The notes beneath the pieces are model-generated. The model saw nothing but the letters and a program-made list of their open reading frames with translations. It did not search any database and was not told where the DNA came from. DNA of 11,957 nt. Source: Promethearchaeota archaeon (GTDB lineage Archaea; Asgardarchaeota; Lokiarchaeia; Sigyniarchaeales; SOKP01). Each line of letters starts with the position of its first letter. The first letter of the stretch is position 1. Below, in pieces: positions 1 through 11,957 of the stretch. A program made the translations under genes and the position numbers. Location of the stretch: assembly GCA_048940645.1 (NCBI GenBank), contig JBHLOI010000082.1:1-11957 (forward strand), read 5' to 3'.

Positions 1-1
1 A

Positions 2-220
2 TATATTAAAGAAGCACTGACTCTTTTAAAAGAAAATGGCACAACATATCATTATGAGGGTATAGTTGAAAGGGGAAATTATTTATCATTATTTCAAGAA
101 TTTGAAGATATAGCTAATACGAAAAAGATTAAATGTGAAATATTATCGAAGAGATATGTTAAAAGTTACGGTCCTAACCTATTTCATGCTGTAATTGATA
201 TTTTAGCTTCAAAAAACTAA
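2..220 (+). CDS. 3' end (partial) of a Trm5/Taw2 (TYW2)-family SAM-dependent tRNA-modifying enzyme
   Basis: Not in the ORF track. Frame from position 2 is open to TAA at 218-220: YIKEALTLLKENGTTYHYEGIVERGNYLSLFQEFEDIANTKKIKCEILSKRYVKSYGPNLFHAVIDILASKN*. 'A..LLK..G..YHY' and 'R.VKSY.P...H.V.D' match the C-terminus of Met-10+/Trm5/Taw2 proteins. Confidence 0.75.
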   Translation, partial: YIKEALTLLKENGTTYHYEGIVERGNYLSLFQEFEDIANTKKIKCEILSKRYVKSYGPNLFHAVIDILASKN

Positions 221-328
221 GTTTTTGTTTAAAATTTACCTTAAAATGTTTTTCATAAACTAAGATTTATATTAACCTAGTTGCATCACATATGTAATGA
301 ATTATGATATAATAAAAAAGGTCTTATT

Positions 329-1114
329 ATGTTTTTTATCACCGAATTAGAATTAGCTCAACTTTCAGGTTTTACAGCACTTTTGTCTGTTTGTATTGGT
401 TTTTTTTTCGGTTTTATTGTCCTCATAAAAAGTATTAAAGTAAAGGATTTATTAATTTTTAACTTCTTTCTGTGTATTATATTTACGTTATCTCCGTGGT
501 ATCCAAGTGGATTAGGATATGTTTATTGGCTAATAAACAATAGGCCATTAGATTATGACATTTATGTATTAGTTGGCATTGTAGCCATCCCCATTGCTAT
601 TTTAGCCTGGCTCAATGTTTATATGACAACAGTAAAACCAACGAAGAAAAAAATAATTCTATCATTGTATGCTATTTTTTCAATAGCCTTTGAAATTTAT
701 CTATTTTATTTTCTTTATTTTGCTCCAGGAGCCCCTGTAGAATCACTTTTAGGGATAAAAGACCCAACTAATCCAGTGGATATTGACTATAAAGGATTTG
801 TTTTAGTTTATTTAGGTGTGAGCATTTTAACTGCTTGTACAACTGGAATACATTTTGCAATCAAATCAATTAAGGAAAAAGAAACGCCTTCTCTTTTGTG
901 GAAAGGAAGGTTCTTATTAGCCGCGTTTATTTTATTTGGAATATCAGCCATTTTTGATGCAATCGTACAGATGGACCAACTCCTATTGATTATTATGAGG
1001 ATAATCCTAGTAGCCTCAAACTTGTTTTTTTATATTGGATTTATTCTACCAAAGTGGGTGCAAAAAATACTTCCAATAAGAGAAATTGAATCAGAAAGGA
1101 ACCATGATATATAA
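329..1114 (+). CDS. Uncharacterised 7-transmembrane membrane protein
   Basis: 261 aa with seven hydrophobic segments (about aa 9-33, 41-69, 78-102, 109-131, 156-178, 194-214, 218-241), basic loops after TM1, TM3 and TM5, and no soluble output domain. Confidence 0.8.
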   Translation: MFFITELELAQLSGFTALLSVCIGFFFGFIVLIKSIKVKDLLIFNFFLCIIFTLSPWYPSGLGYVYWLINNRPLDYDIYVLVGIVAIPIAILAWLNVYMTTVKPTKKKIILSLYAIFSIAFEIYLFYFLYFAPGAPVESLLGIKDPTNPVDIDYKGFVLVYLGVSILTACTTGIHFAIKSIKEKETPSLLWKGRFLLAAFILFGISAIFDAIVQMDQLLLIIMRIILVASNLFFYIGFILPKWVQKILPIREIESERNHDI

Positions 1115-2792: not shown

Positions 2793-4064
2793 ATGAGTAA
2801 TGATATAGCAATTGGGCTTGATTATAGTCATAATAATATGCTGATGTTAGAAGCATCCAGCTATGCTGATTTTACTCAATTCTTATTTAATTCAGGTTAT
2901 AAATTAGGAAAAATTGAAGCAGGATTCTATTCTTCGGAAAAATTAGGGAACTATGACGCTATTATTATGTCCACTCCAAAAAATGTAAACCTCAACCCAG
3001 AGGAAATAGATATTCTTGAAAAATATGTGAAAAATGGTGGAAGTTTATTAATCATTGGAGCACGAGGTGGAGATTATTTAAATCGTTCAAATTTAAATGA
3101 ATTAACTAGTAAATTTGGTTTTAAATTTGCTCCTGATGAAATCTATGATTCTGTAACCTATGTTAATTTACAGAAAAGACCATTATTACAAAAACTTAAA
3201 CCACATTTCATTACGGAACAAGTAAGGAAAATTGTTTTATCAAATCCATGTTCTATAGAAGTTTTAGATTTTTTAGAAGATAAAAAAGATATTAAAATTG
3301 AACCACTTGTCAAAGGCGGGATAAATTGTTGGAGAAAAAAATTTAATGGGGATGAATGGGTTGAAGAGGACTGTCCAAAAATTAACTTAATGGTAGCTGT
3401 GGAATATTTTAAGGGAAAAGTTGTTGCTTTTGGGACTTTATCAATATTTTCATCATTAGGCAGAGAATACGGCTTTAGTGCTTTTGATAATGATATTTTT
3501 CTAGCAAACATCTTAAGATGGTTAACTACAAATATTGAGATGGAAGGTAAAGCGATTACAATTGATTTACAATTAGATATGTTTCATTGGGCAGATTCAA
3601 TTATAAAAAAAGAAGACTGGGATAATTTTTCCGATCTTATTAATGTTAGTCTTAAATACTTCAAAGATAACTACAGTAGCATTATGAAAGAAATAAAAAA
3701 AATTAGGGGAGAAAGATTAGAGAAGAAAAAAGAACACTTAGAAGCAATTAAGAAAGCATTAGAAATACAAGAAAAGCCTGAGGAGGAAGAATTATTAGAA
3801 ATTATACCAGAAAGAAAAAAAGAGGATTTAGAAGGTATTATTGGAGCAATTGAAGAATTAACTGGTGAGAAATATGAGCGATCAATCGATTTTGAGGAGG
3901 AAGAGAAAAAAGAAAAAGCTTTAGCTGAATTACCAGAAGATTTAAATGATTGGACGGTTAAATTATTAAAAAAATTTTGTACAGAATATGAGATAGAATT
4001 ACCACCTAATGCAAGAAAGGCTGATATCATTTCAATAATCAAGTATATTTTTGCAATTGATTGA
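2793..4064 (+). CDS. GIFT (GldG/IFT52)-domain protein with RHH-like segment, charged helical linker and C-terminal SAP/HeH-like motif
   Basis: aa 1-246: 'IGLDYSH', 'LGNYDAIIMSTP', 'EEIDILEKYVKNGGSLLIIGARGG', 'NLNELTSKFGF', 'HFIT', 'GKVVAFGTLSIFS', 'DNDIFLANILRWL' are typical GIFT/DUF4350 motifs. No signal peptide or TM. aa 383-420 'LNDWTVKLLKKFCTEYEI..NARKADIISII' fits SAP/HeH/Rho-N. Confidence 0.8.
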   Translation: MSNDIAIGLDYSHNNMLMLEASSYADFTQFLFNSGYKLGKIEAGFYSSEKLGNYDAIIMSTPKNVNLNPEEIDILEKYVKNGGSLLIIGARGGDYLNRSNLNELTSKFGFKFAPDEIYDSVTYVNLQKRPLLQKLKPHFITEQVRKIVLSNPCSIEVLDFLEDKKDIKIEPLVKGGINCWRKKFNGDEWVEEDCPKINLMVAVEYFKGKVVAFGTLSIFSSLGREYGFSAFDNDIFLANILRWLTTNIEMEGKAITIDLQLDMFHWADSIIKKEDWDNFSDLINVSLKYFKDNYSSIMKEIKKIRGERLEKKKEHLEAIKKALEIQEKPEEEELLEIIPERKKEDLEGIIGAIEELTGEKYERSIDFEEEEKKEKALAELPEDLNDWTVKLLKKFCTEYEIELPPNARKADIISIIKYIFAID

Positions 4065-9538: not shown

Positions 9539-11653
9539 CTAGGCATATTTTTCTCTAAATTCCTTTAATTTAGTTAATACTTCATCCCTCAATGAACCAA
9601 CAATAACTTTTTCTGCTAAACTTATTCTTATTTCCCTAGCAAATTGCATAAATTGGTACAAGACAGGACCAGGAGGAATTTTGTCTCTTATTCCTTCAAT
9701 AAAATTACCTAATTTATTCCCAGTTATCGATTGATCTATCATATTAAAGATGGTATTAAATAATTCATGAATTACTGCTTTCTTTTCTATGCTTATCTCA
9801 CTGACTTTTGTTTCATTAATAGAAGACGAGTCTAATTTTTGACTTAATGCCTCTGAGGTTTGACCTAGGCCCTCTCTGCCTTGAACAATAACTTCAGGCT
9901 CATACCTTGGATATTCTCCTTGACCTGAACAGCTATAATTGAGAATAAATGAATCACTTCCTTTTAATTCGACTATTTTAACTTTTAGTTCTGATTCTTC
10001 TCCTAATTGATTAACTTCATAAGCATCGACCTCGATTTGTGATAAATTGAAACCTTTAGGAATTTTATCTTTTACTATAATATTTTCCAATTCTACATTT
10101 CCTTTATTCTGGATACGAACAGAAACAGAAAATTCTCCTTCAGATGCTCCAGGTTTAATACTTTTAAGGGTTTTTAATTTACGCTTTACATATTTAACCT
10201 TTATTTCGGGTTCATCTATAGGCTCATCTATGTAATACTTTCCCTCTACGGGGCTATTAACTTCTATTTTTACTGGTGTTTTATATAATGTCTCAGTAGG
10301 AGGTCTTGGATTTTTCGCAACCAAAGGGTATTGTATAATTAATTTAGAATTTGGTAGGAATTGATCTGATAAATTAAAAAGCTCAATAGTAATTGTATGT
10401 TGTTTTTCAGGGTTCTGATCACTAGGATTAATCTCAATTTTATTAGTAAAATCTGTTCTTGAACTAATATCTATGTCATGCAAATTTATTGTGATTTGAC
10501 TAAGTAAGGGGCAAACAAAGTCTTGAGGAATATTATCTATGATTCTTATAGATTTAATAATAGAACTCCCGTTATTAGCGATTATACTTTTAATTTGAAT
10601 ATCAGTATTAGCGTACGCATCAACTTCTGGTGGATTTATAACTTTTTCTATAGCTGCACTTAACACAGGATAAACAGTAGATTCTTTATTTATTTCCCCA
10701 AAAACTCTGGTTATAACTACAAATAATGGAGTGAATTCGATGGATGAGCTTAGTTCAGGAACATCTTTTGATTCAACTTGGAAATTAAATGACCACGATT
10801 GTTCAGGATTTAATAATCGATTAGGTGTTTGAGATACTACAGTTTCTGTTCCAGTAATTATTTTATGCATCACTTTTACATCTTCTAATTTTACTTGAAA
10901 TTCTGACTCATTTATGAATTCAACTTCACAATCCCAGGACCCAGGTTGAGCTCCTTCATCTCTGTCAATTCCACTCATTGAATCTGTAAGCCCACGAATT
11001 TCTGGATTTAATAAACTTAACTTATAATTATTAATTAAGTAAGAGATATTTAATATACCAAGGGCTTTCTTCTCTTTATCTTTAACATTAACACTGCAAA
11101 AGACAGTTAGTTCAGCGGTTTGGTTACCATCTAAATTTACAATGACCCACTCTAGGGTTCTGCTTTCTAGTTCTTCCTTTACTCCAGCAATTCCTACGTT
11201 TGGTGCCTTAATTTCAATATTTTGGAGGAAATTAGGGATTTCCCGACTTAATTTAATATTTGATATTGGTATTTCTAAAGGATTAGTTAATGTAATTTTT
11301 ATACTACTTTTATTTTCACTTTCAAAAAGAAAAACATTGTTTAGTTTATCATTAATATCTCTATTTGTATCAAATGTTTCATTAACAATCAATGAAGATT
11401 GTTTTAAATTTTGCACCTCATAATTTTTATTATATTCTTGTGAAGGATTAAGTATTCCAACATTAAGTTCTCTTGAATCTATTGTTGTATCAACAATTTC
11501 CTTTAAATCACACATTAAGTTCCAGAGTCTACTTTTACTTGAGGGATTTTTTACTGATAAATTTCCAGTACCTTTAATTTCCTTAAGATTTAGAGAACCA
11601 TCTACTACTAATTTCTCGTTTTCAGTTATATCTATAATAATTAAATCAGACAT
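9539..11653 (-). CDS. Large cytoplasmic multi-beta-sandwich protein (mu-homology-like N-terminus, DUF11-like Ig domains, C-terminal helical bundle)
   Basis: 704 aa, no signal peptide or TM. About five repeats of a '(V/I)x(I/L)xN....(L/I)xN(I/V)x(V/L)xDxIP ... L.P.....(Y/F)' pattern, then a Ser/Glu-rich linker (aa ~593-621) and a helical tail (aa ~622-704). Confidence 0.8.
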   Translation of the reverse strand: MSDLIIIDITENEKLVVDGSLNLKEIKGTGNLSVKNPSSKSRLWNLMCDLKEIVDTTIDSRELNVGILNPSQEYNKNYEVQNLKQSSLIVNETFDTNRDINDKLNNVFLFESENKSSIKITLTNPLEIPISNIKLSREIPNFLQNIEIKAPNVGIAGVKEELESRTLEWVIVNLDGNQTAELTVFCSVNVKDKEKKALGILNISYLINNYKLSLLNPEIRGLTDSMSGIDRDEGAQPGSWDCEVEFINESEFQVKLEDVKVMHKIITGTETVVSQTPNRLLNPEQSWSFNFQVESKDVPELSSSIEFTPLFVVITRVFGEINKESTVYPVLSAAIEKVINPPEVDAYANTDIQIKSIIANNGSSIIKSIRIIDNIPQDFVCPLLSQITINLHDIDISSRTDFTNKIEINPSDQNPEKQHTITIELFNLSDQFLPNSKLIIQYPLVAKNPRPPTETLYKTPVKIEVNSPVEGKYYIDEPIDEPEIKVKYVKRKLKTLKSIKPGASEGEFSVSVRIQNKGNVELENIIVKDKIPKGFNLSQIEVDAYEVNQLGEESELKVKIVELKGSDSFILNYSCSGQGEYPRYEPEVIVQGREGLGQTSEALSQKLDSSSINETKVSEISIEKKAVIHELFNTIFNMIDQSITGNKLGNFIEGIRDKIPPGPVLYQFMQFAREIRISLAEKVIVGSLRDEVLTKLKEFREKYA

Positions 11654-11756: not shown

Positions 11757-11957
11757 ATGGATTATTATATTAAATTGGTTCCACAAAACAATAATTATTT
11801 CTGGTACGTTATCGAAACTTTTAATAGATTAATGCGATCTGCCATTAAGGGACCTGATTGTACTAATCTTAATAATTGCGATGGTGCCTGTTGTTCTATA
11901 AAAATTGATGTTCCTAAAGTTTTAGCAGAGGAATATATTAAAAGAAATTATGCAACT
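11757..11957 (+). CDS. 5' end (partial) of a YkgJ-like (CxxCxxCC) cysteine-cluster protein
   Basis: Not in the ORF track. ATG 11757 is open to the window end: MDYYIKLVPQNNNYFWYVIETFNRLMRSAIKGPDCTNLNNCDGACCSIKIDVPKVLAEEYIKRNYAT, containing C-x5-C-x3-CC. Confidence 0.65.
   Translation, partial: MDYYIKLVPQNNNYFWYVIETFNRLMRSAIKGPDCTNLNNCDGACCSIKIDVPKVLAEEYIKRNYAT

Follow-up and report, generated by a model that had tools for sequence, protein, structure and literature searches.

Does this archaeal protein begin with a mu-homology domain (MHD), the module with which clathrin-adaptor and COPI coats read their cargo, and if it does, what would such a domain do there? The question is raised by an 11,957-nucleotide stretch of DNA from a Promethearchaeota archaeon (contig JBHLOI010000082.1, assembly GCA_048940645.1), which we call the window and which is AT-rich (GC 26-31%). 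An open reading frame on its minus strand, at 9539..11653, encodes a soluble, acidic protein of 704 amino acids (aa; isoelectric point (pI) 4.9) with orthologues of about 700 aa at 59-99% identity. A first-pass annotation of the window had compared the N-terminal third of this protein with AP-mu by eye and had read it as an MHD, encoded at 10679-11653. We found that this interval is exactly aa 1-325 of the frame, and that every string quoted in support of the comparison occurs in the translation, in the order in which it was quoted.

We modelled aa 1-335 with AlphaFold2, using 34 orthologues. The model had a predicted local distance difference test score (pLDDT) of 89 and a predicted template-modelling score of 0.80, and it was all-beta with 22 strands, in line with the beta-rich N-terminus read from the sequence. 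Its two beta-sandwich subdomains are arranged as in an MHD, with subdomain B inserted in subdomain A and both chain ends in A. When the model was searched against the PDB with Foldseek, the top 50 matches were all MHDs of AP mu1, mu2 or mu3 or of delta-COP (E 4e-11, probability 1.0), and the template-modelling score (TM) normalised by target reached 0.69.

We also compared the model with 48,161 representative chains using VIA-align, independently of Foldseek. The ten highest chains were all MHDs, with Z scores of 13.0-16.4 over 211-228 residues at a root-mean-square deviation (rmsd) of 2.6-3.3 Å, covering model residues 1..325. The highest was AP mu2 (Z 16.4, 228 residues at 2.7 Å), in which model 1..325 lies on chain 169..435; second and third mu2 entries scored Z 16.2 and 15.1. 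It was accompanied by AP mu4 (Z 16.2, 211 residues, 2.6 Å), AP mu3A (Z 15.9, 219 residues, 2.8 Å), bovine delta-COP (Z 15.4, 214 residues, 2.9 Å), AP mu1 (Z 15.0, 217 residues, 3.0 Å), SGIP1 (Z 14.8, 216 residues, 3.0 Å), yeast delta-COP (Z 13.5) and Syp1 (Z 13.0, 220 residues, 3.1 Å). The best chain that is not an MHD reached Z 11.1 with 122 residues aligned, and the next tier, at Z of about 11 or less, aligned about 110-145 residues, the size of one sandwich. Outside archaea, the closest clusters in the ESM Atlas were eukaryotic AP-3 and AP-2 mu (TM 0.59-0.60, 227 residues, rmsd 2.8-2.9 Å). The structure search that the first-pass annotation had proposed thus returned AP-mu and delta-COP MHDs at its top, and VIA-align added the muniscins SGIP1 and Syp1.

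The contrary picture, in which independent tandem Ig domains find their best matches among DUF11 or CARDB proteins, was absent for aa 1-325. Since 228 residues superpose as one body and both chain ends lie in the same subdomain, independent tandem Ig domains are not indicated. A row of tandem sandwiches does fit the C-terminal part of the protein, which contains pilin-, cohesin- and CLIPPER-like sandwiches. Sequence identity to the MHDs of AP mu and delta-COP is only 10-16%; at the level of the predicted fold, the resemblance of aa 1-325 to MHDs is far beyond chance.

Searched by itself, the 704-aa protein did not match PF00928, the Pfam model Adap_comp_sub, at E values up to 10, and so did not reach its gathering cut-off of 31.6 bits. 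Nothing in Pfam matched aa 1-335 at E up to 0.01, and sequence searches of the PDB returned no match either with the 704-aa protein alone or with a profile of its close orthologues. Pfam and NCBIfam found only a DUF11/CLIPPER domain in the full protein. The 704-aa protein alone therefore gives no sequence evidence for an MHD, and its link to PF00928 is transitive through relatives. Ten of the 34 close orthologues matched PF00928 (E 1.6e-6 to about 1e-5, 25-28 bits), under the cut-off and in a constant register, with aa 47 or 113 to 213 or 214 lying on profile positions 69 or 122 to 227 of 259.

Distant relatives gave stronger matches. A search of 1.84 billion representatives with a profile of the N-terminal third returned 214 clusters at E 0.001 or better. 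The relative P0155 scored 40.9 bits against PF00928, above the cut-off, over profile positions 12-236 of 259, which comprise both subdomains; P0161 also exceeded the cut-off, at 34.4 bits. In a set of 30 diverse relatives, 17 matched PF00928 (best E 4e-11) and 21 matched DUF11 on the stretch of subdomain B, and the muniscin muHD model PF10291 matched one of the 30 (E 0.0066).

With a profile of the broad family, a search of the PDB found AP-3 mu3A (E 7e-5) and, with an E value of about 0.1, AP-2 mu. The mu3A alignment pairs family positions 115-220 with mu3A 290-396 and covers subdomain B only. SIKITLTN, ISNIKLSREIP, NVGIA, RTLEWVIVNL and LNISYLINNYKLSLL fall inside the aligned stretch, and opposite them in mu3A stand RFDITIGP, IEGITVTVHMP, GSYTFD, KVLAWDVGKI and LNIQFKIQQLAISGL. 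For subdomain B, the pairings with AP-mu motifs that had been made by eye are thus recovered by a hidden Markov model alignment. On the predicted fold and the remote homology together, we conclude that aa 1-325 are a genuine, homologous MHD, as had been claimed from the letters; the best fold matches are the MHDs of AP-mu, delta-COP and muniscins, and they superpose across both subdomains.

The model allows the MHD to be mapped on the minus strand. Subdomain A begins with the N-terminal strands of aa 1-104 (11342..11653; strands within aa 5-95), in which residue 1 pairs with mu2 169 and whose boundary is approximate. Subdomain B, a DUF11/CLIPPER-like sandwich, follows at aa 105-215 (11009..11341) and is the stretch that matches PF00928, mu3A and DUF11 in orthologues and relatives. 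Aa 216-236 (10946..11008) comprise the return strand or strands to subdomain A and the most conserved loop, with invariant columns at 221-233. An inserted beta-sandwich occupies aa 237-310 (10724..10945), and the long final strand returns to subdomain A at aa 311-325 (10679..10723), where residue 325 pairs with mu2 435.

An Ig-like insert before a possible last strand, VITRVFGEI, had been suggested from the sequence, and both proposals held. In relatives the Pfam match stays contiguous up to about profile position 236 of 259, equivalent to about aa 218 in this protein. The two ends of the model align to MHDs, some 100 residues between them do not, and residue 325 meets the C-terminus of mu2. 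The final strand is present in the model as a long strand at 311-323, aligned to the end of mu2. The insert measures about 75 aa and has six strands within aa 239-309, with approximate junctions. Across the broad family there is little or no variation at P237, W240, F246, N248, S250, F252, W287 and P299, and the insert is no mere accessory.

Between the MHD body and the insert lies an acidic loop, GLTDSMSGIDRDEG (aa 221-234), which is the most conserved stretch (conservation 0.94). The surrounding region, aa 216-236, has the lowest pLDDT of the model, 64-70. High conservation of the loop combined with low model confidence is a pattern typical of a functional, flexible loop. Placed by strand order, the loop of aa 221-236 and the insert would adjoin the strands that correspond to those of the YxxPhi site of mu2, and we regard them as the best candidates for a putative binding site of the protein's own.

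The start of the protein bears on its architecture. The open frame has 716 codons, so that at most 12 lie upstream of the start, and the orthologues share this start, opening with MS(D/x)(L/N)LIIIDIT. Because the orthologues open alike and only 12 open codons lie upstream, the start is secure and a hidden N-terminal domain is impossible. The protein begins at the first MHD strand, and the absence of a longin domain noted in the first-pass annotation is thereby upheld. We found no signal peptide, membrane segment or hydrophobic segment in the 704-aa protein, which agrees with the cytoplasmic N-terminus that had been proposed. Column identity averages 73% among the 34 orthologues; judging from this figure and the wide occurrence of the family in the phylum, the protein appears to be under purifying selection.

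We compared this architecture with those of characterised MHD proteins. Every characterised MHD, in AP mu, delta-COP and the muniscins, is a platform for short peptide motifs carried by cargo or accessory proteins. The likeness to AP mu1-mu5 and delta-COP consists of the two interleaved beta-sandwich subdomains and remote sequence similarity in subdomain B, whereas here there is no N-terminal longin domain, an extra sandwich precedes the last strand, the surface is acidic and three more domains follow. Since the longin domain is absent, the protein is not an AP/COPI medium subunit and cannot dock in a tetramer core. With the muniscins (FCHo1/2, SGIP1 and Syp1) it has in common an MHD that lacks a longin domain and a flexible region leading to unrelated domains. 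In muniscins, however, the MHD is C-terminal, whereas here it is N-terminal, and Pfam found no F-BAR domain in the 704-aa protein, so that it does not combine a membrane module with a C-terminal muHD as muniscins do.

We consider it somewhat better than an even bet that the protein is a cytoplasmic multi-domain scaffold with a homologous MHD, most likely serving as a stand-alone platform for peptide or protein interactions. In the scaffold as we picture it, subdomain A would wrap subdomain B, with the sandwich of about 75 aa set in ahead of the final strand, and the MHD would be followed by two Ig-like sandwiches, the second of DUF11/CLIPPER type, a flexible linker and a four-helix tail. The beta-sheet surfaces of the MHD would bind partner proteins or short linear peptide motifs, and the tethered sandwiches and helical tail would recruit further partners. 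As a stand-alone module it would follow a logic nearer to that of muniscins than to that of AP mu, since the longin domain, by which mu and delta are held in their tetramers, is missing. Peptide binding, a membrane link or a coat role may be proposed for the 704-aa protein by analogy.

Our searches place the family widely in the phylum. A search with aa 1-330 returned 236 proteins; among the matches listed, nearly all are about 700 aa long and 59-99% identical, they are labelled Promethearchaeota, Lokiarchaeia, Thor-, Hod-, Hermod- or Odinarchaeota, and several were already marked PF00928. The family profile matched 205 of 301 sampled genomes of the phylum, including 66 of 90 high-quality genomes, and 57 of 70 genera. 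The frames are about 700 aa long in the order that includes the source organism; in many other families they measure about 595 aa. The P0223 subfamily is labelled Heimdall and is not non-Asgard. In the passages of Eme et al. 2023 (Nature 618:992; PMC10307638) that treat these domains, all AP domain types are reported in Asgard archaea, as the first-pass annotation had stated for adaptin-like domains; Adap_comp_sub is described there as present in most Asgard phyla, never joined to a longin domain, and sparse in distribution. The family is common in the phylum and much denser than this sparse, Pfam-based picture.

Supplementary Table 3 of the same paper lists 44 PF00928 candidates as eukaryotic signature proteins. 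Its Lokiarchaeales entries are about 700 aa long and carry the same TDSMSG, FINESEF and PPEV(D/A)AYANTDM motifs, and they are members of the same family; its Jordarchaeia entry is collinear over the MHD and the insert. What those passages and that table give is a Pfam match, with no structure-level fold, insert, full architecture or distribution over 205 of 301 genomes. Our literature searches naming MHD, Adap_comp_sub or muniscin together with Asgard or archaea found no papers, and the domain is not discussed in two structure-based Asgard surveys (PMC12962969 and bioRxiv 2026.10.28.762692).

The same genome holds a paralogue of 718 aa (contig C126:15829-17985, plus strand) whose PF00928 score of 30 bits falls slightly short of the cut-off. 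Its N-terminus, MARKKEKK, is basic, its MHD-like part is interrupted by some 25 consecutive Glu residues, and it has DUF11 domains but no helical tail. Further afield, a profile built from Loki orthologues only matched P0241 over profile positions 8-335 (E 5e-14), and the relatives of P0241 are labelled Candidatus Poseidoniaceae, Poseidoniales or Thermoplasmatota. A Thermoplasmatota cluster in the ESM Atlas aligned over 297 residues at TM 0.74. The MHD module thus extends beyond Asgard archaea to Marine Group II (Poseidoniales). The Poseidoniales proteins contain the same module within chains of 800-1150 aa that differ in their C-terminal parts and have polyproline- and Met-rich N-termini.

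Two observations concern what precedes the MHD in these relatives. The Poseidoniales-type proteins P0206, P0214, P0241, P0252 and P0265 carry long polyproline/Met-rich N-termini with PPMPPG-type repeats, which are reminiscent of profilin- or SH3-binding tracts. Distant members of the family fall into two classes of conserved N-terminal extension, of about 110-200 aa: one (alignment A7) includes P0155, P0160, P0168-P0170 and P0183, and the other (alignment A6) includes P0161, P0174, P0176, P0184 and others. A PDB search with sequence profiles of both classes returned nothing significant.

Several points weigh against the scaffold reading, besides the missing PF00928 match in the protein itself. 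All structures of this protein are predictions, and its function is read from the fold alone. The MHD region (aa 1-325) is acidic, with a pI of 4.7, whereas mu2 carries basic lipid-binding patches. The module is shared by Marine Group II archaea, for which no coat machinery is known. No trafficking genes were seen in the window or in the block of neighbours retained in a relative, where the neighbours are housekeeping genes, and our searches found no partner, cargo, coat or membrane link for the 704-aa protein. An acidic surface and a module shared with Marine Group II both speak against a simple transfer of the eukaryotic function.

It is unlikely, in our judgement, that the protein is instead a working part of an Asgard vesicle coat, that is, an AP/COPI-like adaptor that gathers sorting signals into buds together with HEAT proteins and Arf-type GTPases. 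The MHD is the cargo-binding module of all AP/COPI coats, HEAT proteins of the genome exceed the Adaptin_N cut-off, two distant relatives lie near a roadblock or Arf/Rag-type GTPase gene, and the report of all AP domain types in Asgard archaea (Eme et al. 2023) points the same way. However, the protein has no longin domain, and PF01217 (Clat_adaptor_s, longin) had no match in the 89.6%-complete genome, in a weak search in which control genomes were silent too. Adaptin_N also matches in Bacillus and methanogens, as expected of generic HEAT repeats; conservation is lacking for the GTPase and roadblock neighbours, which belong to gene types that Asgard genomes hold in abundance; Poseidoniales, too, have the module as a conserved gene; and the domain surface is acidic. 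What the comparison shows of the proposed coat- or adaptor-like protein is the fold and the remote homology; a coat or adaptor function would go beyond both.

The remainder of the protein, aa 326-704, was modelled separately (pLDDT 84.5). Aa 326-490 (10184..10678, minus strand) form a beta-sandwich of the pilin/cohesin type, delimited at about 329-490 in the model, with VIA-align Z of about 14 to pilins, adhesins and cohesins over about 139 residues. The DUF11/CLIPPER sandwich follows at aa 491-594 (9872..10183, minus strand; conservation 0.92); it is supported by the model and by both sequence models, with PF01345 scoring 33.7 bits at aa 505-544 (cut-off 24.6) and TIGR01451 31.5 bits (cut-off 24). 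The invariant basic stretch RKLKTLKSIKPG opens this domain. A disordered Ser/Glu-rich linker at aa 595-620 (9794..9871, minus strand; pLDDT below 50 at aa 595-618, conservation 0.38) leads to a four-helix C-terminal domain at aa 621-704 (9542..9793, minus strand), which has helices over about aa 622-703 (pLDDT about 88) and is basic (pI 9.0). The basic stretch YVKRKLKTLKSIKPG, aa 488-502 (10148-10192), is with the acidic loop one of the two most conserved stretches of the protein, and is a candidate functional site.

The DUF11 domain of aa 491-594 superposes on subdomain B of mu2 (285-393) with Z 10.8 and an rmsd of 2.5 Å. This superposition, together with the double DUF11 and PF00928 matches in relatives such as P0155 and P0161, points to MHD subdomain B being a fold of the DUF11/CLIPPER class. 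Among DUF11/CLIPPER repeat proteins, then, the 704-aa protein has a bona fide DUF11 domain at aa 491-594, and the subdomain B of its relatives also scores as DUF11. It differs in the interleaving of its first two sandwiches, which form an MHD instead of following each other like beads on a string.

The same evidence could be turned towards convergence. The protein would then be an array of DUF11/CLIPPER type, for example a cytoplasmic structural or lattice protein, whose first two sandwiches have come to pack like an MHD by chance, without shared ancestry or an adaptor-like role. Subdomain B matches DUF11 as well as PF00928, the C-terminal DUF11 domain superposes on mu2 subdomain B, and Ig-like sandwiches are common folds. 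We hold this to be very unlikely, because the PF00928 matches span both subdomains and in relatives exceed the curated cut-off, and because rigid superposition of two subdomains with the termini in A is MHD-specific and stands 5 Z units over other chains.

DUF11/CLIPPER repeats are usually found in secreted, S-layer or pilus proteins. That the 704-aa protein itself belongs to the surface or adhesin-type proteins and leaves the cell without a classical signal is suggested by its PF01345 and TIGR01451 matches and by the pilins, adhesins and cohesins that best match aa 326-490, but it is highly improbable, as this family is without an export signal: among the 150 listed of the 214 family representatives neither signal peptides nor anchors were observed and the hydrophobic segments present are few, marginal and internal, the N-terminal extensions of relatives are charged or proline-rich and not hydrophobic, and the C-terminus is a soluble helical bundle.

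The neighbours of the gene in the window are an MFS transporter, a GIFT-domain protein, methyltransferases, an HhH-GPD glycosylase, a rhomboid protein, a PCMT-like protein, DJ-1/PfpI and a PEMT/ICMT-like membrane methyltransferase. A relative with 60% identity, on a contig of 2.27 Mb, retains the block of PEMT/ICMT, DJ-1, PCMT, rhomboid and HhH-GPD genes. On the plus strand of the window, at 11757-11957, lies the start of a divergent gene for a CxxCxxCC protein (putative Zn/Fe-chelating, PF03692), cut by the contig end; upstream of the family gene in relatives, this gene and one for a 122-aa Mrr-like protein recur as conserved neighbours (55% and 70% identity). The GIFT-domain protein, of 423 aa (2793-4064, plus strand), is a conserved member of the syntenic block and weakly matches ABC_transp_aux and the IFT52 GIFT domain; we treat the latter match (E 1.5e-6, 27.9 bits, cut-off 27.2) as weak and sub-threshold.

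A roadblock/LC7 gene (L017:2993-3289, minus strand) lies directly downstream of one distant relative of about 595 aa, and an Arf/Gtr1-RagA-type GTPase gene (L018:9127-10188, minus strand) lies two genes from another. Neither is present in the window or near close relatives, and as a functional link both are compatible with chance. As markers of an adaptin trunk, the Adaptin_N matches of the genome's HEAT proteins are non-specific.

As an MHD candidate the family has been listed before, and the claim of homology, like the idea of a coat- or adaptor-like protein, is published (Eme et al. 2023). What we add is modest: for one Lokiarchaeial orthologue the claim is confirmed at the level of the fold, the insert is located and the domains are mapped; to this come the paralogue, a count of the distribution and the link to DUF11. 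The origin of the MHD bears on the rise of vesicle trafficking during eukaryogenesis. Because the family is common in the phylum, lacks the longin half, has its module in Marine Group II and has its subdomain B in common with DUF11/CLIPPER proteins, caution is needed in reading it as evidence of an Asgard coat. A more far-reaching conjecture, which we put forward as doubtful, is that this family represents the prokaryotic ancestor of the eukaryotic MHD. The domain would have arisen by the interleaving of two DUF11/CLIPPER-type sandwiches. In today's Asgard cells it would already act at membranes as a stand-alone receptor for sorting signals or peptide motifs, through the invariant loop of aa 221-236 and the insert, and only the later addition of a longin domain would have produced mu and delta.

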